From: a virus
Length of the DNA: 10,490 nt
Direction: 5' to 3' (one strand)
UHGV virus genome: UHGV-1619017
Positions 1 through 10,490 of this stretch are shown here, piece by piece. Under the pieces are notes generated by a model. That model did not search any database. It was not told the DNA's origin and saw only the letters and a list, made by a program, of their open reading frames with translations. Position 1 is the first letter of the stretch. Every line of letters begins with the position of its first letter. Both the position numbers and the translations under genes were made by a program.

Positions 1-17
1 CACATAATTAAAGCTAT

Positions 18-725
18 TCAGAATTTGATCACTCCACTCACAGCCCCCTTTAACGCACTTGTAGCCATGCCAGCGGCACCGTTGACCAAAGCAGAAACAC
101 CTGAGCCTGCGGATGTGTATTTCTGGAAAGTGATTGGGTATGACAAGAACTCTGACACCTGATCACGTGAGCGAGTGATTTCCCCAAGTTGAGTAGGAAA
201 TACGCGCATTTCTTCTTCCAGTTCTTTTCCGCCGTCCTGAGTTACCCGGTAGACACGGATTTTCATCAGATATTCCGGAGGAAGGTTTATTGTTCCATCA
301 GGATTTGTTACACGAGAACGACGCTCTTTGAACCAGTCCATGATCTTGCCATCTTCGGTATCCCTCACGGTCATAGTGACCGGTCCGGCGCTAACATAGG
401 TTGGCTTGCTGAATTCTACGCTGCCGATCACCTTGCTTTCTGTCTCGATGTTTCCACTGCTGTACGTGATATCCTTCACGAACATATCGAAGCCGTTCAG
501 GCCATCCACTTCAACTGTCCATTGCCATCCCTGGGCATAACGGATACGCATAGCGGCAGCAACAATATTTTTCCCGTAGGCAATATCGCTACTGTAATTC
601 CCGCTTACCCCGCCGCCTGATATGGCTTTATCAAGAATGTCGCTAATGAGGTTGCTGGTGAATGATTTCGTGTTAAATGACAATGCGGTGGTCAACGTTC
701 TACCAACGCTGCTGAAAATACTCAC
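18..725 (-). CDS. Hypothetical phage virion protein, probably tail-associated (235 aa)
   Basis: Uninterrupted minus-strand ORF, co-directional and tightly packed with the sheath operon. Start is GTG at 725..723, preceded by GGAGG about 6 nt upstream (reverse complement of 729-733). C-terminal segment (RVFPTQLGEITRSRDQVSEFLSYPITFQ) has the alternating beta pattern I associate with tail-tube-family proteins; this is a weak, memory-based resemblance. Confidence 0.4.
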   Translation of the reverse strand: MSIFSSVGRTLTTALSFNTKSFTSNLISDILDKAISGGGVSGNYSSDIAYGKNIVAAAMRIRYAQGWQWTVEVDGLNGFDMFVKDITYSSGNIETESKVIGSVEFSKPTYVSAGPVTMTVRDTEDGKIMDWFKERRSRVTNPDGTINLPPEYLMKIRVYRVTQDGGKELEEEMRVFPTQLGEITRSRDQVSEFLSYPITFQKYTSAGSGVSALVNGAAGMATSALKGAVSGVIKF

Positions 726-740
726 TCTGCGCCTCCAGCG

Positions 741-1292
741 TTAAAAAATGGTAGCCCCCGGAATGATTGCCCGGTTTGAAGACATTTTTTCCTCAATCTC
801 CTGCACGCGGGCATATAGCGTGGCTTCATCGGGTAGATCGGAGTAGTCAAATTTTCCGTCGATGGACGCTCGCCGCTGCCGGGCGACATTTCTGACATTG
901 ATAAGCGCCTCCAGATACTCCTCCAGCATCCCAATGATCGCTGGCGGCACTTGCCATTCATCCAGCTTTCTGTCGCGTAGATTAACCAGATACAGCATCC
1001 GAAAAGGCCAGCGTTCTGCACCTGTTAGCTCTAATTCAATAAAGCCGGATAATTCATCCGAATAGACCAGCAGGCCATTGTTGTCGGTAACATGGACCAG
1101 AGAGAGATAATCTTCTGGCAATGGGATTGCCGTGCCACCCTCTTTTTCAAGTTTTAATGTTTTCACTACCCCTGCCCTGTCCTGATACGTTGTCAGTGCT
1201 TTGATCAGGAAGGCTTTCAGCGTTTCTTCTTCACGCACAAGCAGTGGATTAAATCGTGCTTTAACGCTTTCTAATAATTCGGTTGGTGTCAT
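741..1292 (-). CDS. Hypothetical phage structural protein (183 aa)
   Basis: ATG at 1292..1290; stop lies 15 nt upstream of the next gene's start; same strand and operon as the tail genes. No motif I can assign. Confidence 0.4.
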   Translation of the reverse strand: MTPTELLESVKARFNPLLVREEETLKAFLIKALTTYQDRAGVVKTLKLEKEGGTAIPLPEDYLSLVHVTDNNGLLVYSDELSGFIELELTGAERWPFRMLYLVNLRDRKLDEWQVPPAIIGMLEEYLEALINVRNVARQRRASIDGKFDYSDLPDEATLYARVQEIEEKMSSNRAIIPGATIF

Positions 1293-1318
1293 CGTACCTA
1301 CAACTCAAATACAAGGAA

Positions 1319-1339
1319 TTCCCGCCACAAGGGCGGGAA
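1319..1339 (-). terminator. GC-rich hairpin immediately 3' of the 163-aa gene; possible partial intrinsic terminator or mRNA stabiliser
   Basis: TTCCCGCC-acaag-GGCGGGAA, 8-bp perfect stem with 5-nt loop, beginning 5 nt after the stop codon (1345-1347). On the minus strand it is followed by UUCCUUGUAUUU, an interrupted U-tract. Confidence 0.35.
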
Positions 1340-1344
1340 AGAGA

Positions 1345-1836
1345 TCACTCTACCCAGTTGTAAACAATACGCAGGGAAGGCTTAACGACCGCTGTTACGT
1401 CTTCGGATGAGAAGTCCACGGCGTCGGAATACACTTTGCAATGAGAATATGTGCGGATCAGACCTTTATGGTTACCGCTATTCGATTCAGCCGCCGCCTG
1501 TAAGGTAATTTCCAGATATTCTTTTCCGTATACCATCTGTTTTACAGCGGCGAGAACTGCGCCTTCGATAGTTTCCGCGCATGTGACCTGAAATTCACCA
1601 GAGTTGCGTAATGGTCCGTGCTGGTTGAATTTCATGCCACCAGGGGCGTAATCCTCCACATCTTCGCGTGTCATTTCTGGTAACTGAGCTGTACGAACTA
1701 GTACAGACAGATGTTCGTAACCCTTAATGGTCATCCAATATTCAGAACCAATAAGTTTTTCGCCTGCAGCCAGGTTTTTATTAAACCGGGATTTTAGAAA
1801 GGCCATATCGGCTTTTGTATTTGCAAAACCGGACAT
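1345..1836 (-). CDS. Putative contractile-tail tube protein (gp19-like), tentative (163 aa)
   Basis: Size typical of myovirus tube proteins. Internal LP-containing segment (YWMTIKGYEHLSVLVRTAQLPEMTREDVE) and C-terminal ...RIVYNWVE resemble the T4 gp19-family pattern as I recall it. Followed immediately by a GC-rich hairpin (1319-1339). Confidence 0.3.
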   Translation of the reverse strand: MSGFANTKADMAFLKSRFNKNLAAGEKLIGSEYWMTIKGYEHLSVLVRTAQLPEMTREDVEDYAPGGMKFNQHGPLRNSGEFQVTCAETIEGAVLAAVKQMVYGKEYLEITLQAAAESNSGNHKGLIRTYSHCKVYSDAVDFSSEDVTAVVKPSLRIVYNWVE

Positions 1837-1844
1837 AAATACTC

Positions 1845-2435
1845 CTACACAAAAACAGATGAGATATTGCTACGGTTGATCGATGTGTTACCGCTGCATT
1901 GCAGGGTTACCGTGTTATGAGTGAAATAGCCTTCCGGTGTGCGCGGGGCGTCCAGTTGGTAACTCACGCTTTTGATAACAACGTCGGTAAGGGCTATGTT
2001 CCTACCTATGTTTAACGTTACTGTCTCCGGGCGACGACCGAATGGCGCTACATTGTTCAGTTCCGGCGATTCCATCTTCAGCAATGCTGTAATGGCTGCG
2101 TTCACTTCAAGTTGCGCGTTCGTTGTCGCCATGAAATCAATTACCAGATTAAATTCAGGCGGTTGCTGACCTTCCCAAACAAGCATTGAGTTGAAGAGGG
2201 TTTTTGTTGTTACGCCGGTTGCGGTCTGAAGCGTATCTGCAAGAGAGCCAGCCGCAGCGCTAATACCGCCAAGCAAACCTCCTACTGACTGGTTTTCAAA
2301 TGGTGATTGCCACATTGATGACAGTTCTGCGGTAGATCCTTCACCGATATAACCGACGACCATATCCTCTGAAGAGAGGATATAAACCTTCATTAACGGA
2401 CTTATTCCGTCAGGCATTATCGCGCCGCAAATCAA
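1845..2435 (-). CDS. Hypothetical phage tail-associated protein; start ambiguous (about 182-196 aa)
   Basis: The track start at 2435 is a TTG with GGGAGA about 8 nt upstream. Alternative ATG starts at 2417 (no SD) and 2393 (MKVYILSSEDMVV..., weak SD). Beta-rich protein ending ...VTLQCSGNTSINRSNISSVFV. Function not assignable from sequence. Confidence 0.35.
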   Translation of the reverse strand: MICGAIMPDGISPLMKVYILSSEDMVVGYIGEGSTAELSSMWQSPFENQSVGGLLGGISAAAGSLADTLQTATGVTTKTLFNSMLVWEGQQPPEFNLVIDFMATTNAQLEVNAAITALLKMESPELNNVAPFGRRPETVTLNIGRNIALTDVVIKSVSYQLDAPRTPEGYFTHNTVTLQCSGNTSINRSNISSVFV

Positions 2436-2484
2436 ACGCTATTTCTCCCAGGTAGAGGCCACCTATGCAGGCGGCCTATGTCAC

Positions 2485-3219
2485 TTACAAACCGCGTTTT
2501 TTGCGAATGCGCATTGATTTTTTGCGGTTGATATTCGCTACGGATGTATGTGCTTTGCGGCGTGCTTTTTTCAGCGCCTGTTTTTGCAATGACGTCATGC
2601 GGCGAGGACGCGGGCGTTTACGGATGATGGTAACCTTGCCATCACGAACCACTTTTTTACGTACCGCTTCCAGCATTGCGCTATCACCACCAGCAACGGT
2701 GTAAATGGCAATAGCTGTTTCCATCATGTCGGTGTCGCTTTCGGAAAGAGCGTCATAAACACGTTCGGCAGCTGAGTCATCTTCATCGTCGATCATTTCG
2801 GTTACATCGTCCTGATCAGCGCCAAGCGCAACAGCTGCATCAGCAAGAGCTGCGAGAGCATCGTTATAAGCATCGATTTGCTCATCGGTGAAATCGGTGT
2901 CTTCATCGATATCAGCCAGGCCAGCCATAGTGATTGCTAATGCATCAAATGAGTCAGCCTCCGGATCACCATCTTCAACCCAACCAGCAAGCATGGAAGC
3001 TGCCAGGCTGCGCATATCACCTTGTGCACGGGATTCAACCGCTTCCATCATCGCGGTTTCAATGTCGTCTTTGGGCTTTGGTTGAGTGTCCTTTCCTTTC
3101 TGTCCTGCGCTTTCCAGCATGGCGTTATCATTATTGTCCTGCGTGGATTTATCACCGCTTTCAAAGCAGCCAGAACCGAAAATCGCACGCATAAAAGGAT
3201 CAGCAGTATAATTTTTCAT
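2485..3219 (-). CDS. Bipartite protein with a strongly acidic Asp/Glu-rich body and a highly basic Arg/Lys-rich C-terminal tail (244 aa from the ATG)
   Basis: The track start at 3225 is a TTG; the ATG at 3219..3217 is preceded by GGAGAGAGG with about 7 nt spacing and is the likelier start. Acidic region DIDEDTDFTDEQIDAYNDALAALADAAVALGADQDDVTEMIDDEDDSAAERVYDALSESDTDMMETA; basic tail KRPRPRRMTSLQKQALKKARRKAHTSVANINRKKSMRIRKKRGL. Antisense plus-strand ORFs in this span are short and lack ribosome-binding sites. Confidence 0.5.
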   Translation of the reverse strand: MKNYTADPFMRAIFGSGCFESGDKSTQDNNDNAMLESAGQKGKDTQPKPKDDIETAMMEAVESRAQGDMRSLAASMLAGWVEDGDPEADSFDALAITMAGLADIDEDTDFTDEQIDAYNDALAALADAAVALGADQDDVTEMIDDEDDSAAERVYDALSESDTDMMETAIAIYTVAGGDSAMLEAVRKKVVRDGKVTIIRKRPRPRRMTSLQKQALKKARRKAHTSVANINRKKSMRIRKKRGL

Positions 3220-3233
3220 ATTCAAACCTCTCT

Positions 3234-3255
3234 CCCCCGCATCATTTAGCGGGGG
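3234..3255 (-). other. GC-rich hairpin between the sheath stop and the ribosome-binding site of the acidic/basic protein gene
   Basis: CCCCCGC-atcattta-GCGGGGG, 7-bp stem with 8-nt loop, 7 nt after the sheath stop and directly 5' of the GAGAGG SD. No U-tract on the minus strand, so not a canonical terminator. Confidence 0.3.
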
Positions 3256-3262
3256 TTATAAA

Positions 3263-4921
3263 TCAGCGCATCAGAATTGGCTTACCGACGATTCGGCGAG
3301 CTGTACCGGTCGGACAAACAGACCAGGACACCTCCCACAGATCGATGTCCTTTTGGACAACCTGAACAACATATGGATCTTCACCCTGGGACTTGTCACG
3401 TGGAGTAACCAGCGCACCGGCTGCAACATAACGGTCAAGCAATTCAGTCATTGCTTTCATTAGCGTTTCTTTGGTAATGCCATCCGGTTCGTGCTTAATC
3501 GCCTGAGCTACTTCATAGAAATCTCTGGCGATGGCGTTCATCAAGGAAGACACATGCTGGAATCGCAGATAGTTGTTTTTGCTGTAAGTTGTTAAAGAGT
3601 CGTCAATGTAAACGGACCCGTCAGCAGCAACTGAAACTGGATTAATGCGCGCAAGAACGAACGCTTCACGATCAACTGCACCGATATTTGGAATTCGGGC
3701 AATGTTCTGTCGATCAATAATCGCGCGTGATATACCTGCCGGTGCGTAATGCCAACCACCAACATCCGGTACCAGCGCCACTCCTTTTGCTTTCGCTACG
3801 AATGCATCGCAACTGATGCCGTAAACAACATTCATACCGGTGAAGGTATCTCGGCAGGAGAATGGGAAGTAGTAGCGGCTTGGCTGGTGTGAGCCACCAA
3901 AACTATGGCTTTTAGCTTCTGAAATAGCATTTTCTGGTGTCTGGTTGCCCTTCAGGTCGTAGAACATGTCTACACGAACGTCTTCTGCCAGATTTTTGAG
4001 CGCGGCTAAGGCGGATGCGTCATAGCAGCCCAGTGACAGTAATGCGGTGTAATTAACCTCCGAGGCTTCGAGAACCTTTAATGCTTCCAGATAGTCTTCG
4101 GTGTCAATGGTGGACAAATCGCCATCAGTGCCGCCTTCAAAAGCCACATCCTCAAACATGAGTTGAGCAGCAGATGCTTCCGCATTATCTGCCAGGACGG
4201 CACCAATGCGAGTGGACTGGCTTTCAAGCAGTGTCGGAATCCATGCTGGTTGGCCCATGTCGTTAGTGCCTTCTGGATTGAAGGACACCTGGTGGCTTTC
4301 CAGCACCTCAACAGACCCATCGGTTTGTTTTTCTTTCAGCGTCAGCGTAAAGAGTTCACTTTCTTCATCATCGCGAGTTAGTGATAACGTGCGATTTTGA
4401 GATGCATCACCATCTTTGATGAAGAATAATGCCTTCCCTTCGTCTTTAATCTGGGGAGTTTCTTTTGGTGTGAAAGTTACTGATTGTGTCGTTGCAGTTG
4501 AAGCAACACCCACGCTCAATGTGTCACCTGGATTTACTGTGGTTTCAGCAGGTTCCACGGTAAGTGTTTTGTTGGCCTTTGCCGCTTTTGCTCTGCTCGC
4601 GACGGAAACAGAAATTCCCGGCACCTTCATGTCTTTAGCGCAAACACGAACGACATAACCAGAGCCACCTTTTACGGCACGCTCTACGTGGCGGTATGGT
4701 TCAAATGCCGATCCCAGGCGAGGGTGAATAGGTGAACCTAATACGCTTTGATAAGTCGTATCGTCAACTTTCAGCACTTTACCCGGTGCGCCACGACGCG
4801 ATATTACAAGCCCAGCAAAGACAGATGCGCCACCGCTGGTATTGGTGAGGGTAGCGTCAGCATTTACCGCCATTACAGCAACGCCAGCTGCCTGCCCTAC
4901 CGAAAAACTAATCTTATTCAT
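3263..4921 (-). CDS. Phage tail sheath protein (contractile tail), with an internal Ig-like insertion (552 aa)
   Basis: ATG at 4921..4919, stop TGA at 3265..3263. C-terminal half carries sheath-family landmarks as I recall them: YYFPF, GGWHYAPAGISRA (W-x-APA), ARINPVSVAADGSVYIDDSLT, YLRFQHVSSLMNAI, and a C-terminal beta segment VVQVVQKDIDLWEVSWSVCP. N-terminal AG...G...VLGSP pattern resembles sheath N-termini. Residues about 100-230 are Thr/Ser/Val-rich and Ig-like (LTVEPAETTVNPGDTLSVG). Confidence 0.65.
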   Translation of the reverse strand: MNKISFSVGQAAGVAVMAVNADATLTNTSGGASVFAGLVISRRGAPGKVLKVDDTTYQSVLGSPIHPRLGSAFEPYRHVERAVKGGSGYVVRVCAKDMKVPGISVSVASRAKAAKANKTLTVEPAETTVNPGDTLSVGVASTATTQSVTFTPKETPQIKDEGKALFFIKDGDASQNRTLSLTRDDEESELFTLTLKEKQTDGSVEVLESHQVSFNPEGTNDMGQPAWIPTLLESQSTRIGAVLADNAEASAAQLMFEDVAFEGGTDGDLSTIDTEDYLEALKVLEASEVNYTALLSLGCYDASALAALKNLAEDVRVDMFYDLKGNQTPENAISEAKSHSFGGSHQPSRYYFPFSCRDTFTGMNVVYGISCDAFVAKAKGVALVPDVGGWHYAPAGISRAIIDRQNIARIPNIGAVDREAFVLARINPVSVAADGSVYIDDSLTTYSKNNYLRFQHVSSLMNAIARDFYEVAQAIKHEPDGITKETLMKAMTELLDRYVAAGALVTPRDKSQGEDPYVVQVVQKDIDLWEVSWSVCPTGTARRIVGKPILMR

Positions 4922-4958
4922 GCTGTGTTCTTATCCTCTAAAGCGAGAGAACGAGGCA

Positions 4959-4985
4959 AGGCTACCCACGGTTAATGGGTAGCCT
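4959..4985 (-). other. Hairpin immediately 3' of the Ig-like gene and 5' of the sheath gene
   Basis: AGGCTACCCA-cggttaa-TGGGTAGCCT, 10-bp stem with 7-nt loop, 4 nt after the stop (4990-4992). Followed on the minus strand by a pyrimidine-rich but not U-rich tract. Possible attenuator or processing site. Confidence 0.3.
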
Positions 4986-4989
4986 CTGA

Positions 4990-5268
4990 TCAGGATTCGC
5001 CTACCGTGAAGTTGTCGCCTACGGTTACTTCTTTCGTAGTCGGTTCAACACTGACGGCGCTTACGCTTTTAGGTGCCTCCCTAACAGTGACCGTGCACTG
5101 TGCGGTTTTATTGCCGTCATTAGTTTTGATTGTCAGCACTGCCTGCCCTGCCTTAAGAGCGGTACATGTAGTGCCATCAACCCGGACAATTTCAGGGTGA
5201 TCGGACTCAACAGTGAAAGATTTGTCTGTTGCGTCAGATGGCGTGATAGTTACTTGAATGTTTGCCAT
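4990..5268 (-). CDS. Small Ig-like (Big_2-type) domain protein, possibly a virion decoration or accessory protein (92 aa)
   Basis: ATG at 5268..5266 with AGGAGA 5 nt upstream. Sequence FTVESDHPEIVRVDGTTCTALKAGQAVLTIKTNDGNKTAQCTVTV matches the bacterial Ig-like group 2 pattern (..VATVD..G.VTALKAG.A.ITA...DG.K.A.C.VTV). Ends inside what looks like the start of a second Ig repeat (SVSAVSVEPTTKEVTVGDNFTVGES). Confidence 0.6.
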   Translation of the reverse strand: MANIQVTITPSDATDKSFTVESDHPEIVRVDGTTCTALKAGQAVLTIKTNDGNKTAQCTVTVREAPKSVSAVSVEPTTKEVTVGDNFTVGES

Positions 5269-5280
5269 TTTTTCTCCTGA

Positions 5281-5301
5281 ACGCCCCTTAATCAGGGGCG
5301 T
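5281..5301 (-). other. Hairpin directly 5' of the SD of the Ig-like gene; reads as an intrinsic terminator only on the plus strand
   Basis: ACGCCCCT-taatc-AGGGGCGT, 8-bp stem. On the plus strand it is followed by GTTTTTGCC (terminator-like). On the coding minus strand it is preceded by an A-run and followed 2 nt later by AGGAGA-aaaaa-ATG. Confidence 0.3.
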
Positions 5302-5414
5302 GTTTTTGCCTTACTTCTGCTTTGTTTTTTTCTGTGCCTTTGAAGTGTTCGCGGCGATAGTTTCACCTTCATCTACGTCAAGTGACGTTGGTGATACCGA
5401 CACGTTCGCCACCA

Positions 5415-7112
5415 TCACTTTTTTTCGTTAACCTTGCCTGTCAGCATGTCGATAGCACCTTCTTTGGCACGAGTCAGACGCAGGCGGGCGAAATAATTCT
5501 CACCGTTGCGCGGGTGGACTTCGTTGATAGCACTACCCCAGAGAGTGGTGCGGTTAACGAGAGATGGATTGGTTTCGTGCACATACGGGATTGCTGGGAC
5601 CGCATCACCAGCGATCAGCCCGGCTTTACCGATGCCTTCACCGCGACCATAGAAATAAATGTCATCCAGACCTAAGTCATATCCCTGAGCCTTGAATTGC
5701 TCACACACAGGCTGCGGCACTTCGTAAATACGAATCGTGCCAAACAGGGTGCCGATGTACTGCACATACGGTGACTGAACGTAGCCCGGCGCGATTTGGA
5801 AGTGCTGTGGAGGCAGAGAACGCAGGAAGTTAGCTGCGTCACCACCTGCGAAGCCACCGCGAATACCTGTGGTCAGGGTGCGGTTTGCCATTTCCTGAGA
5901 CAGGGCGTTTACTGCGTGGCGCAGGAGGCCGACCCAGGACTCATAGTTTTGAGCTTCAGGCAGAGCCACATCAAATTCACGACCATAAACGGTATGGAAT
6001 ACCAGGGTGCGCAGACGCATGATGTCGGTTTCATGGGAGATCCAGTTCCGCATTGCGGAGAACTGAAGTGCCGCCAATTCAAGGCCGTGTTCACGGCTTA
6101 AATCGGAAGCGGACATTACGGTGTGTTCGGAAGCAATTACGTACTGAGACGGTCGAACTTCATACTTACGCATAGCCTGGTTGATTACCGGAATCAGGCT
6201 TGGATTGCGCTCGATGTTAATTTCGACCTGAACCGCAATTTCAGTCCCTTCTGCTGGCGCTTGAGTGAAGGTAATGTCGATGACACCAGTGTCATAAGCG
6301 ACTTTTGCGGTAGCTGAGAATGCATTGCCTTTGCAGTCTTTATCATTGAAATAAAGGTTGCCATCGCCGTCGTCAACCTTGGACGGTTTGCGGTTGATAA
6401 GCAGCTTGTTATAACCAGCACGCAGCGGGCAGGACTGCCCCTCAAAATTTTGGATGTCGAACTGGAAAGTTTTGGTGCTGCCGTCCCCTTTCGTGGAAAG
6501 GGTATACAGGCGCTTCATTTGAGAATAAACACCAGCGGATTGCATATTCAGTTCGTCACCTTGCTCGAAGGTGCCGAATTTTGTGCCTGCTACGTTGACC
6601 AGTTCATAAATATTTGACTCATCACGATCACAAGGAACAAAAGTACAGGCATCACTGGTAGCAGCACCCAGAGAGGCAGGCAGAATTAGTGCAGCATATT
6701 GAGCAACTTTCATTACGCCGTCAGAGCTACGCATTGATTGCGCGACAGACTCAAACATTGCCTTGCCAGTGCCTACGTGTGTATCGCTGGCACATTCAGT
6801 CATCAGGCGTTCAAGTGCCATGTGTGCGTTTGCCAGGATATCGCTTGCCGGGTAGTGACCATGCTGGCGCTTGTACTCATGCAGAGACATAGCCCACCCA
6901 CCAGCGATCTGACGTGCAACCTCTGGATTTACGCCTTCAAACATAGCCTCCTTCTGGATAGCTTTATCCAGGTTCTCCATCATCGCTGCCTGATCAGCAA
7001 TCATATTGCCCGCAGCATCGGTGGTCGGATCGACGGTCATAGCCATGACGCTTGCCGCCCGATTCATAATCTCGCGCTCGCGATCACGAGCTGGCTGAAT
7101 GTTTTTATTCAC
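5415..7112 (-). CDS. Putative major capsid (head) protein precursor, tentative (565 aa)
   Basis: Long ORF immediately upstream of the Ig-like and sheath genes in the same operon. Start at 7112 is GTG (the track shows M) with AGGG about 8 nt upstream. Size and position next to the sheath gene are consistent with a P1-type gene 23-like arrangement, but that is from memory. The Met/Ala-rich helical N-terminal 100-150 aa could be a cleaved propeptide. No motif-level proof of capsid fold. Confidence 0.4.
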   Translation of the reverse strand: MNKNIQPARDREREIMNRAASVMAMTVDPTTDAAGNMIADQAAMMENLDKAIQKEAMFEGVNPEVARQIAGGWAMSLHEYKRQHGHYPASDILANAHMALERLMTECASDTHVGTGKAMFESVAQSMRSSDGVMKVAQYAALILPASLGAATSDACTFVPCDRDESNIYELVNVAGTKFGTFEQGDELNMQSAGVYSQMKRLYTLSTKGDGSTKTFQFDIQNFEGQSCPLRAGYNKLLINRKPSKVDDGDGNLYFNDKDCKGNAFSATAKVAYDTGVIDITFTQAPAEGTEIAVQVEINIERNPSLIPVINQAMRKYEVRPSQYVIASEHTVMSASDLSREHGLELAALQFSAMRNWISHETDIMRLRTLVFHTVYGREFDVALPEAQNYESWVGLLRHAVNALSQEMANRTLTTGIRGGFAGGDAANFLRSLPPQHFQIAPGYVQSPYVQYIGTLFGTIRIYEVPQPVCEQFKAQGYDLGLDDIYFYGRGEGIGKAGLIAGDAVPAIPYVHETNPSLVNRTTLWGSAINEVHPRNGENYFARLRLTRAKEGAIDMLTGKVNEKK

Positions 7113-7270
7113 GGTTAAGCCCTAAATTCGGGCGCGGCGTGAAGGTTCTTTTGACGAGCTAACAATACCAACTTTGTTATTTAGTCAATAGCATTAGTAA
7201 AATAAAATCTATTAACACTTATATTGTTATGTGCTTTAATTTTAGTTTTCTAACACAAATTATTAGAGTT
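7113..7270. promoter_or_regulatory. AT-rich divergent intergenic region between the capsid candidate (minus) and the ribbon-helix-helix gene (plus); putative promoters and operators
   Basis: About 160 bp, markedly AT-rich from 7160. Repeated motif ATTGTTA/TAACAAT: TAACAATA at 7160-7167 (inverted), TTGTTAT at 7175-7181, TATTGTTAT at 7222-7230. Minus-strand TTGACT -35-like hexamer (reverse complement of 7183-7188) without a clean -10. Promoter positions not resolved. Confidence 0.35.
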
Positions 7271-7663
7271 ATGGCGTATCGGATCTTTGTTTCGTATAAA
7301 AATGGCGCTAAAAGCCACTCCCTGAACACAACGAGCCGCTTTCTTGTTGAGGCGCAACTGGCATCAATTCTTGCTGAAAGTGAGATACTCTCCCTCGCTG
7401 AACGAATCGTCATCCAGTTTTCTGGTAGAGATATTCTTAATGTCCCCGCCCTCACCCCGTCCTCCGAAGTCATGGAATCAATTAAATGGCCTGTATGTGG
7501 ATGCCCGGCGAGAGTTGAAGAGCCGGTAACCGCTACGCTCTATATGCCGAAAGCAGTAAGAGACTGGCTTGCTGTGATTGGCAACGGGAAAGTCAGTGCT
7601 GGACTGCGAAAGTTAATTGAAATGGCAGATATTCCAGAGTTAAAAAACGCATGGCGACAATGA
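7271..7663 (+). CDS. Putative DNA-binding protein with C-terminal ribbon-helix-helix-like domain (130 aa)
   Basis: ATG at 7271 chosen over the in-frame ATG at 7229, which lies in the AT-rich promoter region and gives an implausible N-terminus. C-terminus TATLYMPKAVRDWLAVIGNGKVSAGLRKLIEMA fits a strand, helix, G-x-x-S turn, helix pattern like Arc/MetJ/CopG. Weak SD. The competing minus-strand ORF 7219..7473 runs into the AT-rich intergenic region and is judged spurious. Confidence 0.4.
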   Translation: MAYRIFVSYKNGAKSHSLNTTSRFLVEAQLASILAESEILSLAERIVIQFSGRDILNVPALTPSSEVMESIKWPVCGCPARVEEPVTATLYMPKAVRDWLAVIGNGKVSAGLRKLIEMADIPELKNAWRQ

Positions 7664-7680
7664 GTAAACAGGGGGGCAAA

Positions 7681-8139
7681 ATGAGTCACGCGAATCCATC
7701 AAAAACACAATATCGCTTAATGCTGGCGATCGCGTCAGCTATACCAACCAGCCTGAATCCCCCTGCTGGCTATCCCGCTGTTGTTGATGATTGTTTTCAG
7801 TATTACGGTGAAGACATTCTGGGACAGTCGAAAGCACTAAAACAGTTGTGCAAAGCCGGGATTCTTCACTGCATAGGCGATCCGGATGATTTTGTTGTCA
7901 TGCTGGCAGATCGTGACTCTTTTCTGCTGTCCTGGAAAGCCGGGGCGCGCGAAGCGCGTTTGGGGAATGGCATTGGCTACATAGACTATAGCGATTGCCC
8001 GCTGGCATTTGCTGGTGGATATATGCATTGGCATGAGCGAAATAGAGGCCGTCAGCGTCAGTATCGCTTGAGTGACTTTAACGTCTGTCACGGTTTCGAA
8101 GAAGCTGACAGCCAGGACATCTGGCTTCAGGAGCCTTGA
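7681..8139 (+). CDS. Hypothetical Cys/His-rich protein, likely co-transcribed with the upstream ribbon-helix-helix gene (152 aa from ATG 7681)
   Basis: Strong SD AGGGGGG 6 nt upstream of ATG 7681. In-frame ATGs at 7651 and 7660 would overlap the stop of the upstream gene (7661-7663), so the two genes are tightly coupled either way. Contains several Cys and His (C..YY, HC, DCP, HWH, CH) that could bind metal. No family recognised. Confidence 0.4.
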   Translation: MSHANPSKTQYRLMLAIASAIPTSLNPPAGYPAVVDDCFQYYGEDILGQSKALKQLCKAGILHCIGDPDDFVVMLADRDSFLLSWKAGAREARLGNGIGYIDYSDCPLAFAGGYMHWHERNRGRQRQYRLSDFNVCHGFEEADSQDIWLQEP

Positions 8140-8459
8140 TCCCCCTTCCCTTCCCAAATCTCCCTGTTTCTTTGGTTATTCAGTGCGTTTCGTTGGTTGC
8201 ATTCGTCGATCGTGCTGAATAACTGTTCAGCGTATGTCGGATACTTGTTTAACAGCACTGGCGTGTCCTCTGGCACTAAACAAGGGGAGTAATCAATCAG
8301 ATTTGCCTGCGGCTTGCTGGTGGCTTCTACGGTAATTTTCACTGGCACGCTGGTTGATGGCTTTTGCCCGTTCCCGCTGCATCCTGATAACGTCATCAGG
8401 CACACGCACATCGTTAATCCCAGCACGGCGCAACGCATTTTCAAGGCGAGTGATTTCAT
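8127..8459 (-). CDS. o-spanin (Rz1-like outer-membrane lipoprotein spanin subunit), start overlapping the i-spanin gene (110 aa precursor)
   Basis: Strong SD GGGAGGAAA upstream of ATG 8459. Signal peptide ending in lipobox LSGC (MKSLALKMRCAVLGLTMCVCLMTLSGC); mature part is Pro-rich and short with an extra Cys (SPCLVPEDTPV). Overlaps the i-spanin ORF by 167 nt out of frame (8293-8459), the classic overlapped spanin arrangement. Confidence 0.65.
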   Translation of the reverse strand: MKSLALKMRCAVLGLTMCVCLMTLSGCSGNGQKPSTSVPVKITVEATSKPQANLIDYSPCLVPEDTPVLLNKYPTYAEQLFSTIDECNQRNALNNQRNREIWEGKGDQGS

Positions 8460-8793
8460 TCTGGCTTTCCTCCCGCTGTTTGATCAGTCTGTTATTAAGT
8501 TCGGTTGTTTTGCGCTGGTAGTCTTTTTCCAGTTCTTTGATTCTTTCGTTTTCGACCTGCATGGCAGAGCGTGCGCCTTCACTTAACTGCAATGCGGTAG
8601 AAAGCGTGTTGTTCTCGCTTTCCAGTTGTGATTTTGAGTCTTCAAGCGACCGGACATACCTGATGTGTTCGATAACTGCCGTCGTTGTTCGGTAAATTCC
8701 AGAAATGGCTAAAAGCGCAATTACAATCAAAATTATCTTTTTCAAAACCACCCTCTTTAGTTTTTTTGGTGTTAAAAGTGTACCGTTTTGCAT
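8293..8793 (-). CDS. i-spanin (Rz-like inner-membrane spanin subunit) (166 aa)
   Basis: Short basic N-terminus (KKLKRVVLKK), a single hydrophobic transmembrane segment (IILIVIALLAISGIY), then a long charged, coiled-coil-like periplasmic region (SLEDSKSQLESENNTLSTALQ...ERIKELEKDYQRKTTELNNRLIKQREESQNEITRLENALRR). Same architecture as lambda Rz. Its 3' end contains the start of the lipoprotein gene in another frame. Confidence 0.65.
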   Translation of the reverse strand: MQNGTLLTPKKLKRVVLKKIILIVIALLAISGIYRTTTAVIEHIRYVRSLEDSKSQLESENNTLSTALQLSEGARSAMQVENERIKELEKDYQRKTTELNNRLIKQREESQNEITRLENALRRAGINDVRVPDDVIRMQRERAKAINQRASENYRRSHQQAAGKSD

Positions 8794-8818
8794 CCTTTTG
8801 TGTGCTTAAATGGTGTTG

Positions 8819-9622
8819 TTATGGTTCCTTTTTGGTGTTCTTTTGGAGCGCATCGATAACGCCTTGTGGCATGATTAAACTGATTGCCGGACTCATTACT
8901 GCATCGTCCAGTAGAGAACCTGTTAACGTGATTGCGACTGCGTTCTCTAAACCTTTGGTTGCCTGAGTTGTTGCCGTTTTAATGCGGTCAGCAAGGGCTA
9001 TGACACTCTCACTTGCTGAATTAATTCCGAAGAGTGAAACTTCAGCTACTGTTACCGCTTCCCGTAAAGCATCAATTTCATCCTGAGTAATGTCCGGAGC
9101 CTGTGCTGCCCCTCCACCAGCCTGTCCACCATCACTATCACCACCAGCACTCCCGGCAGCTTCAATTTTTGCGTTTATGGCGTTCATGGCGGTATTCAGA
9201 TCGTCAAGTTTCAGCGCCGCCAATGCGTCCGTTAATGATTGCGGGATGGAAACATTCCCCATCCCCTCTACCAGGGCGAACGCTGGCGCGGGGATCAGTT
9301 CATTACCTTTTGCGTGGCACTCCCAGCCAATCTTCATCTGTAACAACTCTGATGGCGTGGTGTATGGGGAAAGAGAGTCAGCCAGTGATGAAGAAGACTT
9401 GCTGGCCTCATTGAGCTGTTCGGAAAATCCAAGCAATTGAGTCGTCCAGGCCGACACTGAATCAGGATAGGTTTTATCAGGGTGAACCATTTCCTGTATT
9501 GCGCTCGCGAGTGACGAGGCTTTTGAAGAAGCCGCCAGGCTTATGGTTATTGATTCCGGTGTGGATGCACCAGCACCAGACAGAATTTGGAAGGCTTTAA
9601 CTTCACCTATTGAATCAAGCAT
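8819..9622 (-). CDS. Hypothetical protein, two-part with Ser/Ala-rich N-terminal half and Gly-rich linker (267 aa)
   Basis: ATG at 9622..9620 overlaps the TAA stop of the upstream PAAR-like gene (TAATG, 1-nt overlap), indicating translational coupling. Low-complexity linker AAGSAGGDSDGGQAGGGAAQAP. No transmembrane segment, no catalytic motif I can recognise. Antisense plus-strand ORFs here (9090..9440, 9103..9414) are artefacts. Confidence 0.45.
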   Translation of the reverse strand: MLDSIGEVKAFQILSGAGASTPESITISLAASSKASSLASAIQEMVHPDKTYPDSVSAWTTQLLGFSEQLNEASKSSSSLADSLSPYTTPSELLQMKIGWECHAKGNELIPAPAFALVEGMGNVSIPQSLTDALAALKLDDLNTAMNAINAKIEAAGSAGGDSDGGQAGGGAAQAPDITQDEIDALREAVTVAEVSLFGINSASESVIALADRIKTATTQATKGLENAVAITLTGSLLDDAVMSPAISLIMPQGVIDALQKNTKKEP

Positions 9623-9906
9623 TATGCGACCTGAAAAATATCCTCGCCGTTAGCGATAACAGAACCACAAGAAAGCGGATCGCCTACGCAGACTACTCCC
9701 TTTCCACCTATTGAATACCATGCCCGTGTCGATACAGCCGATCCGGGATGTGCACTGTTGCCATCTGTATGGCTGGGAAACATGGCACCATCCACAACAA
9801 CTGGCTTACCGTTGACGGTGAACCAGGGAACGGTTTCAGCTACCAGTCGCGGCGGAAATCCTCCGTGACCGGAACAAAGTGTGTCGCTGGTGGCTATTGC
9901 GCTCAT
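9622..9906 (-). CDS. PAAR-like small protein, candidate spike-tip protein of a contractile injection apparatus (94 aa)
   Basis: ATG at 9906..9904 with AGGAGA 6 nt upstream. Three repeated beta-turn segments with the spacing of PAAR repeats but degenerate motifs: SDTLCSGHGGFPP, VNGKPVVVDGAMFPSH, GKGVVCVGDPLSCGSVIANG. Compare canonical GD..C..HGG.I, INGKPAAR.GD, VGD...HGG.I. Memory-based, no HMM run. Confidence 0.4.
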   Translation of the reverse strand: MSAIATSDTLCSGHGGFPPRLVAETVPWFTVNGKPVVVDGAMFPSHTDGNSAHPGSAVSTRAWYSIGGKGVVCVGDPLSCGSVIANGEDIFQVA

Positions 9907-9953
9907 TCTTCATCTCCTGGTTATTCGCCTATTGTCATCACTTTGTTATTTCG

Positions 9954-10172
9954 TCACTCAAAGAGAGAGTGAAATCACGGAACATTTAAAATTCCCGTTT
10001 TGTTCTCAAATTGTTCTCACTTCTATCCAAGTGCCCGGCAGGCGATTAAAGATATTCTCAAAACAACCTCAATTATGACTCTTATTTATCTCTAATTATG
10101 TGGATTTTCGATGTCTTCTCTTTTAAAATCATGATTTGATTCTCAAATGTGTCTCAGAAGTGGAGCAAGAAG
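9954..10172 (+). promoter_or_regulatory. parC: parC-like centromere and promoter region upstream of parM, with TTCTCA-core direct repeats
   Basis: TTGTTCTCA at 10000-10008 and again at 10011-10019 (11-bp register), a degenerate third copy in phase (TTCTATCCA from 10022), and further copies TATTCTCAAAA at 10053-10063 and GATTCTCAAA at 10138-10147 just upstream of the parM ribosome-binding site. Imperfect inverted repeat TCACTC-N7-GAGTGA at 9954-9972. Possible sigma70-like -35 TGGATT (10101-10106), 17 bp, -10 TAAAAT (10124-10129). Position upstream of parM matches the parC-parM-parR layout. Region also holds the divergent promoter for the minus-strand operon starting at 9906. Confidence 0.5.
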
Positions 10173-10490
10173 ATGCGCATTTTTATCGACGATGGTTCAA
10201 CAAATATCAAAATGCTGTGGGAACACGACGGGGAAACTCGCACGCACATCAGCCCTAACAGCTTTAAGCGCGGATGGTCAGCAACATTTGGTGCTGGCAA
10301 GCCATTTAACTATGTCATTGACGACGAAAAGTATTCGTATGATTTGATCTCGCCAGATGTTCTGCCGACGAATAACGTGGAATGGCAATACAGCCCGCTT
10401 AACGTCCTGGCTGTTCACCACGCCCTGCTGACAAGTGGCATTGAGCCGCAGGAAGTAGAAATTGTGGTTACGCTGCCACTGGCGGAGTTT
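10173..10490 (+). CDS. parM: ParM/StbA actin-like plasmid segregation ATPase (type II partition), N-terminal 106 codons; gene continues beyond the window
   Basis: ATG at 10173 with GGAG about 8 nt upstream. Translation [106 protein letters not shown] closely parallels plasmid R1 ParM as I recall it ([37 protein letters not shown]). Absent from the ORF track because no stop occurs before the window end; the track ORF 10147..10347 is an out-of-frame artefact. Confidence 0.9.

Follow-up and report, generated by a model that had tools for sequence, protein, structure and literature searches.

A D6-like phage-plasmid segment of P1 type with a ParM/ParR partition locus and a candidate frameshift site at the capsid gene end

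What kind of genetic element carries the genes of a contractile phage tail next to a plasmid partition gene? The question is raised by UHGV virus genome UHGV-1619017, of which a stretch of 10,490 nucleotides was analysed (the window, which throughout means this whole stretch). A reading made from the letters alone (the sequence-only reading) had taken it for a likely phage-plasmid. When the window was compared with a phage collection by megablast, only D6 records were returned; phage D6 (MF356679, 46961-57457) aligned in a single unbroken co-linear piece at 94.2% identity over 100% of the length, and P1 gave no nucleotide-level match. D6 is a known P1-like phage-plasmid (PMC7969092, PMC6799933), and both infectious particles and plasmid lysogeny have been reported for D6 itself (PMC6799933, PMC7969092). 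A full-length megablast found 126 matching plasmid records, and in 112 of them the match spans 80% or more of the window; about 110 of the plasmids belong to E. coli, Salmonella and Shigella. RL465 plasmid II of E. coli matched best, at 98.0% identity, and most relatives are 87-96 kb in length. Among complete E. coli genomes the sequence was present in 106 of 5,426, and all 123 matching places were on plasmids and none on chromosomes. This suggests, with high confidence and in agreement with the sequence-only reading, that the window comes from a D6-like (P1 subgroup 2, P1-g2) phage-plasmid. Such an element is a temperate phage with a contractile tail that persists as a low-copy plasmid in its prophage state.

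The same DNA was found in an ENA metagenome scaffold, HEQI17-1_SAMEA4431947_METAG-scaffold_659 (35,189 bp), which is identical to the window at 10490 of 10490 positions. Positions 803-29684 of this source scaffold (L006; L numbers denote the individual loci compared) were read, about 29 kb of the 35 kb, and contained P1/D6-type genes, a Rep3 replicon and partition genes only, with no host genes and no integrase. On one side of the window lie pmgB, sit, pmgA, bplA, gp16 and tail fibre gene R, and on the other parM, parR, a ParA-like pair, methylase genes, rdgC, more uncharacterised open reading frames (ORFs) and higBA. The replicon region beside tub, with a Rep3-family initiator gene and iterons, begins ~70 bp to the left of the window (L014 11365-12554). 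Its iteron, TTGAGGGCAAATCTTACACC, is ~20 bp long and occurs in about nine copies: five in tandem at 22-32 bp spacing on one side, one inside the gene, and three more direct copies on the other side, where two inverted copies are also located. The initiator and its iteron arrangement resemble the oriR/incA layout of P1.

Within the window, 14 ORFs occupy positions 18-9906 and encode virion parts and lysis help; all 14 are intact. In P1-g2 elements the replication and partition systems are set apart by 14 persistent genes (PMC7969092), and the same order was found here: the Rep3 gene lies ~380 bp outside the left end of the window and is followed by the 14 ORFs from tub to upfC and by parC-parM. 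The virion genes sit between the replicon and a type II partition locus. The window shares with D6 and D6-like plasmids such as pYU39_89 a co-linear full-length alignment (94.2% for D6 to 98.0% for plasmids), the same 14 genes, the same parC-parM-parR and the same position of the Rep3 replicon; it differs from them by about 2-6% nucleotide divergence and by parC spacers that diverge more than parM. The plasmid pYU39_89 is described as carrying repB plus iterons, repL, cre/lox, 'cop, parA, stbB and parM' (PMC6799933). In the D6 annotation, orf58 and orf59 are StbA-type and StbB-type stability proteins and orf42 is a putative replication initiator. The element type, its StbA-StbB/ParM genes and the placing of replicon and partition locus apart from each other are therefore already known from GenBank annotation and several papers, and the only parts that might be new are the capsid-gene recoding candidate and the description of the parC iterons.

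The set of virion genes is that of P1, with homologs of Tub, PmgC, BplB, PmgG, gp21, gp22, gp23, Mlp, UpfB and UpfC, and seven of the virion proteins have homologs in solved P1 structures. In P1 (Punavirus) the order is bplB-pmgG-21-22-23, then parS parB parA incA repA oriR upfA, then mlp-ppfA-upfB-upfC-Pdmt. Both elements are plasmid prophages, their shared proteins are 22-56% identical, and the gene order is the same except for the maintenance modules; what the sequence-only reading had described as a scattered, P1-like organisation is this conserved P1 order. The slot between gene 23 and mlp, which in P1 holds parS-parB-parA-incA-repA-oriR-upfA (type Ia ParABS), is occupied here by homologs of D6 orf52 and orf53, whereas the ParMRC locus follows upfC and a Rep3 gene next to tub provides the replicon. 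P1 proper (P1-g1, Punavirus) is recognised by ParABS and RepA/oriR between gene 23 and mlp, and the window lacks both at that position. P1 also lacks the immunoglobulin-like (Ig-like) gene and the slippery site at the end of gene 23 that are described below. Collectively, these results support the view that the element is a P1-type myovirus kept as a plasmid, with ParM/ParR in place of the P1 ParA/ParB, and the different partition solution anticipated by the sequence-only reading is borne out.

The right end of the window consists of the first 106 codons of parM (stbA; 10173-10490, plus strand), which start behind a GGAG and match profile positions 1-106 of Pfam StbA_N at 5.2e-48. This fragment includes the N-terminal DDGSTNIK motif. 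Position 10490 abuts a scaffold gap of 22 Ns inside parM (L006 9111-9132), where relatives have 15 bases, TACGACGACGACGCG. Because 22 Ns replace 15 real bases, the split of parM into 118 and 193 amino acids (aa) by automatic gene calling is an assembly artefact, and the possibility that parM is a truncated pseudogene was rejected on this ground. Past the gap, the scaffold equals its relatives base for base over the stretch compared. Directly 3' of parM the scaffold encodes ParR as an intact 112-aa ORF (PF10784, 3e-11). A replicon and a downstream parR, which the sequence-only reading had named as checks on a phage-plasmid, are both present, and neither a chromosomal setting nor a truly broken parM, which it had named as grounds for abandoning the idea, was found.

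The full ParM of the plasmid CP099081 served as a substitute, since over parC and the first part of parM this plasmid and the window are 99.7% identical in DNA. This ParM matched R1 ParM (PDB 4a62/1mwk) end to end at ~1e-111 and was 54% identical to an IncF ParM. ParR was 31% identical to IncF ParR, and the ParR of a relative was 96% identical to the source-scaffold ParR. The only solved structure matching ParR of the D6-like family was the pB171 par2 ParR (StbB, PDB 2jd3; 1.6e-6, N-terminal residues 3-74), to which the similarity is weak (31.8 bits) and does not extend to the C-terminal part. Among phages in the collection, the P88-like (Xuanwuvirus) temperate phages were the only other group with a close ParM homolog (46-48% identical); they differ in having genomes of 31-40 kb and show no match to the window DNA or to the capsid protein. 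The locus resembles R1/IncF ParMRC in its parC-parM-parR order, in the 54% and 31% identities of its two proteins and in the presence of 11-bp iterons upstream.

These iterons form a parC-like centromere/operator (9990-10163, plus strand) in the 266-bp intergenic region before parM, where the sequence-only reading had noted a repeat region. CTC[AT] cores are located at 10005 and 10016, at 10057, 10068, 10079 and 10090, and at 10142 and 10153, which gives three clusters in a 2-4-2 layout with the core TTCTCA and TTCTCAAAT as a typical unit. Five iteron pairs are exactly 11 bp apart, compared with a shuffle mean of 0.015, and 0 of 20,000 shuffles reached five. When the unit was searched with 2 mismatches over the whole window it was not enriched (35 matches against 39.8 expected); enrichment is confined to the local, phased array. 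When nine distinct versions of this region were compared, conservation was higher in the cores than elsewhere in it (0.95 versus 0.88, p = 8e-4). Five relatives (L007, L012, L017, L018 and L021) have an extra 11-bp unit, TTGTTCTCAAA, in the first cluster, and RL465 plasmid II has one, TCTCAAATGTG, in the last. The iteron number is thus 8 here and 9 in some relatives, through exact 11-bp indels at two independent places. In D6 and the most divergent versions the spacers change and the cores hold phase; among relatives generally, the iteron spacers diverge much more than parM.

The parC of R1 is laid out as two blocks of five iterons. The layout here differs (2-4-2, with 3-4-2 and 2-4-3 in relatives), as does the host replicon, which is a phage. 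The iteron sequence is unrelated to that of the IncF locus, with TTCTCA cores here against A/C-rich repeats there, and this suggests a separate specificity, as judged by sequence comparison. By homology with R1 ParMRC, ParR would bind the TTCTCA iterons of parC and repress the par promoter, and ParM-ATP filaments capped by ParR/parC would push sister plasmids apart. A possible promoter, read by eye, lies between the second and third clusters (TGGATT at 10101-10106, 17 bp, TAAAAT at 10124-10129). We infer the binding of ParR to the iterons, the position of the promoter and the segregation activity.

The phage-plasmid reading is carried by direct observations, namely the gene identities, the synteny, the plasmid location of the relatives, the intact parR and the iteron array with its copy-number polymorphism. 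Several points weigh against it. This copy is an incomplete 35-kb metagenome scaffold, and parM was read across an assembly gap. A sigma-70 scan of parC gave no site at the scan threshold, and we found no experiment in the literature proving that the D6 ParMRC is an active partition system. In addition, the adjacent ParA-like ATPase pair could share or take over the partition role.

Three rival explanations were considered. The first is a defective remnant: the plasmid would have retained structural genes of D6 type and lost the ability to produce infectious phage. The assembly covers only 35 kb where ~90 kb would be expected, complete and incomplete D6-like prophages have been distinguished (PMC6799933), and a 35-kb Salmonella plasmid record carries the whole window. 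However, the full set of window genes is intact and the Ig-like gene is under purifying selection, the scaffold ends are assembly ends rather than visible deletions, and most relatives measure 87-96 kb. We therefore consider a defective remnant improbable.

The second explanation concerns the region downstream of parR (L006 6931-7849), which encodes a 213-aa ParA/MinD-type ATPase and a 94-aa ORF. These two might form the main partition system, with ParMRC redundant or in another role. The pair lies directly 3' of parR in the source scaffold, and likewise in all examined relatives for which the retrieved locus extends to this point. Against this, the family as a whole has kept parM, parR and the iterons conserved and intact, D6 ParM is 99.7% identical to a relative's ParM at the protein level although the intergenic DNA has diverged, and no centromere for the pair was identified; we rate this explanation as unlikely, on a par with the first. 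The gene for a full glutaminyl-tRNA synthetase, glnS, follows the ParA-like pair in D6 and some relatives (L001 20965-22626) and is missing from the source scaffold and several others. The last explanation, a prophage integrated in the chromosome with parM as a relic, found no support here beyond a survey's mention of chromosomally integrated phage-plasmid-like sequences in some S. Agona genomes (bioRxiv 10.1101/2025.09.12.675607), and it can be set aside as highly improbable given the 0 of 123 chromosomal places in complete E. coli genomes, a scaffold free of host genes and integrase over the positions read, the Rep3 replicon and the intact parR.

Next to this D6-like phage-plasmid framework, the 3' end of the capsid gene raises a question of its own. 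The major capsid protein gene, the gene 23 homolog (5415-7112, minus strand), encodes a protein 44% identical to P1 gp23 that matches the P1 Gp23 structure 9ukm at 2.7e-162, so that the capsid candidate of the sequence-only reading is well founded. The gene ends ...AAC GAA AAA AAG TGA (minus strand, 5429-5415). Its last two sense codons thus contain the heptamer A_AAA_AAG (5418-5424, minus strand) in zero-frame register (X_XXY_YYZ), the only in-register copy across the coding sequence of the window. The E. coli dnaX -1 frameshift site has this heptamer as its slippery sequence. The -1 frame continues from it for 35 codons (5311-5418, minus strand), reads VMVANVSVSPTSLDVDEGETIAANTSKAQKKTKQK and then stops; the predicted junction peptide of the -1 product is VMVANVSVSPTSLDVDEGETIAANTSK, preceded by ...VNEKK. 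In D6, most of this frame is annotated as a separate 34-aa 'orf50' and not as a frameshift.

Every D6-like locus examined has the heptamer unchanged, while the stop codon (TGA, TAA or TAG) and the upstream codons vary. In five loci (L036-L039 and L042) the ATG of orf50 is lost and the -1 ORF is still open, with synonymous and conservative changes. In L041 the capsid protein is 81% identical and 16 residues longer, and its gene ends GA[A AAA AAG], in register at the shifted position; the -1 frame there reads VGVTGVSVSSDGQELSEGDSFAIE before its stop, an Ig-like peptide of unrelated sequence. The slippery site and the Ig gene are both missing in P1 and in a relative with a 57% identical capsid protein. 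The conservation of the heptamer together with a -1 ORF in divergent relatives suggests a programmed frameshift. As a candidate for the stimulatory RNA structure that such sites have 5-9 nt downstream, a GUGGCGA/UCGCCGC helix begins 6 nt past the slippery site; with upstream context included, the fold z score was -2.97 and 0 of 200 shuffles folded as well, and downstream segments alone gave z = -0.2 to -2.4 across variants, with no covariation available.

From these sequence features, we put the prediction that a -1 programmed frameshift at the capsid 3' end yields a minor extended capsid protein at an even chance. Alternatively, orf50 may be a free peptide made by termination-reinitiation, or the arrangement may have been conserved as a relic, left when part of a tandem-Ig gene was captured out of register. 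A fusion of orf50 with the Ig ORF by stop-codon readthrough was rejected, since the spacer differs by a 1-nt indel in D6 and many relatives and the frames are not kept together. T7 gene 10A/10B encodes a frameshifted capsid protein that carries an Ig-like domain, and a 2006 survey by Fraser et al. reportedly covers frameshifted capsid and tail proteins with Ig-like domains. The site described here resembles those of T7 10A/10B type in that a major structural gene carries a -1 slippery site at its 3' end and the -1 frame is Ig-like. It differs in that the -1 frame gives only the first ~21 Big_2 positions and then stops, with the rest of the fold coming from a separate gene that has its own ribosome-binding site.

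That separate gene (4990-5268, minus strand) encodes the 92-aa Ig-like protein already noted in the sequence-only reading (Pfam Big_2, 2.6e-8) and has its own AGGAG-N7-ATG. The protein covers Big_2 profile positions 22-79 only (34.1 bits), without the first ~21, and its C-terminal piece, VSAVSVEPTTKEVTVGDNFTV, resembles positions 2-21 as an extra copy. Joining the -1 peptide to the 92-aa protein widens the match to positions 2-79 and raises it to 42.1 bits, and joining the protein's own tail to its N-terminus gives 39.1 bits. The same pattern was found in L041 with smaller gains, from 24.1 to 26.9 bits (-1 peptide) and 25.2 bits (own tail). In all relatives found the protein is 88-95 aa long, mostly 92, and the comparison with L009 gave pN 0.118 and pS 0.674, which indicates purifying selection on the Ig gene. 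In the AlphaFold2 (AF2) model of the 92-aa protein, residues 1-62 form beta strands and the tail, residues 68-92, has low confidence; overall confidence is moderate, with a mean pLDDT (predicted local distance difference test) of 65.7. A self-folding circularly permuted Ig was considered for the 92-aa protein and is not supported by this model, in which residues 68-92 are unpaired with pLDDT <50.

One mechanism would connect the candidate frameshift with the truncated fold. A fraction of ribosomes would shift to -1 at A_AAA_AAG and add about 35 residues to the capsid protein, and the added residues would supply strands one and two of a Big_2 Ig fold. As in the donor-strand complementation of pili, they might then complete the N-terminally truncated fold of the 92-aa protein, whereby a decoration protein would be tethered to the capsid; the spare C-terminal A-B strands of the 92-aa protein could recruit a further copy. 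As a whole, this split-Ig tethering, in which frameshifted capsid strands complete the 92-aa protein's fold in trans, is a tentative proposal and considerably more doubtful than the frameshift itself.

Two conserved GC hairpins flank the Ig gene. An 8-bp GC hairpin follows orf50 (5281-5301) and reads as an intrinsic terminator on the plus strand only; its stem is kept in L009 and L010. Since its T-run is on the plus strand only, this terminator reads antisense to the late genes. A conserved 10-bp hairpin lies between the Ig gene and the sheath gene (4959-4985, minus strand), with compensatory changes in L016; L009 and L010 have a different sequence there that is still a hairpin.

The remaining virion genes are all encoded on the minus strand, and the roles assigned to them follow proteomic and knockout work on P1 (PMC9024508). 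At the left end of the window lies the gene for the Tub homolog (18-725; D6 orf43), a tail-tube-fold protein of the baseplate/tube complex that matched tail tube PHROG 1842 at 1.3e-98 and P1 Tub in PDB 9ay5 at 2e-48. It is followed by the PmgC homolog (741-1292; PHROG 1851, 1.5e-88; P1 PmgC in PDB 9ums, 1.9e-52), a head-tail adaptor or neck protein according to the P1 knockouts, and by the tail tube protein BplB (1345-1836), which is 55% identical to P1 BplB and matched BplB in PDB 8jan/9ay5 at 4e-59. The PmgG homolog of the baseplate-tube junction (1845-2435) is 43% identical to P1 PmgG (PDB 9ay5, 1e-42); its true start is probably internal, relatives being annotated or called at 182-198 aa. 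The acidic gene 21 homolog (2485-3225; PHROG 1053) is 42% identical to P1 gp21, which is assigned to the baseplate or tail tube in the P1 annotation, and comparison with the PDB gave no solved relative. The tail sheath gene, the gene 22 homolog (3263-4921), encodes a protein 42% identical to P1 gp22 (PHROG tail sheath, 7e-197; P1 Gp22 in PDB 8jaj, 6e-123). Its best stretch against 8jaj is residues 160-551, so that the C-terminal part is the conserved part, in line with the C-terminal motifs from which the sequence-only reading had recognised a sheath.

Beyond the capsid gene, two spanin genes overlap in different frames; they are the spanin pair of the sequence-only reading. The o-spanin (8127-8459, minus strand) is a homolog of P1 Mlp, to which it is 31% identical, has the same LSGC lipobox and matches a PHROG Rz-like spanin family. 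The i-spanin (8293-8793, minus strand; PHROG 214, 1.6e-15) has an N-terminal transmembrane segment and a coiled coil and is the positional equivalent of P1 PpfA, to which it is 22% identical. The structural genes had been placed within 3 kb of parM. The spanins do lie that close (1.4 kb), the capsid gene roughly so (3.06 kb), and the sheath gene is farther off (5.2 kb). The late genes end with the UpfB homolog (8819-9622, minus strand; PHROG match, 25% identical to P1) and the UpfC homolog (9622-9906, minus strand), a PAAR spike-tip protein supported by profile matches and 56% identity to P1; P1 UpfC has been compared with T4 gp5.4 (PMC9024508). Rfam and tRNA scans of the window gave no matches.

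Plus-strand ORFs ahead of the partition locus occur only in the slot that separates the capsid gene from the spanin genes (7113-8139), whose content is variable among relatives. Here it holds two near-orphans, the orf52 homolog (7229-7663), with D6-type homologs only, and the orf53 homolog (7651-8139), whose probable start is 7681 behind a GGAGG. The sole other phage match to orf53 is in Vibrio phage douglas 12A4 (34%). Neither protein matched a Pfam, NCBIfam or PADLOC family, and the claim that the capsid gene is flanked by regulators is therefore not supported; by eye only, the orf52 C-terminus has a ribbon-helix-helix look. In L009 and L016 the slot is occupied by a 71-aa ORF, an ORF6N-domain protein and a 134-aa ORF, and in CP099081 (L003 2053-3742) an IS200/IS605 element with TnpA and TnpB-like transposase genes is inserted between orf52 and orf53. 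An in-register A_AAA_AAC is located 5 codons before the orf52 stop (7642-7648, plus strand), and orf53 is in the open -1 frame. The two genes probably just overlap, because orf53 has its own GGAGG-ATG at 7681. Two promoter-like sequences were also seen in the slot, TTGTTA-18-TAAAAT at 7174-7203 (plus strand) and, 5' of the capsid gene at 7202-7220 (minus strand), AAGTGTTAA-TAGA-TTTTAT, which by eye only resembles the annotated P1 late promoter LP23 (AAGTGACTT-TCAA-TAAAAT).

Together, these results settle the provenance of the window and explain the apparent truncation of parM as a scaffold gap. If the candidate recoding site and the split Ig domain coupled to it were real, they would be a new way to attach a decoration protein, and the annotation of every D6-like genome would change. 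D6-like elements have been surveyed in clinical isolates (bioRxiv 10.1101/2025.09.12.675607), and the parC array is a candidate determinant of both incompatibility and specificity in this family, which is now tracked in clinical E. coli, Shigella and Salmonella.

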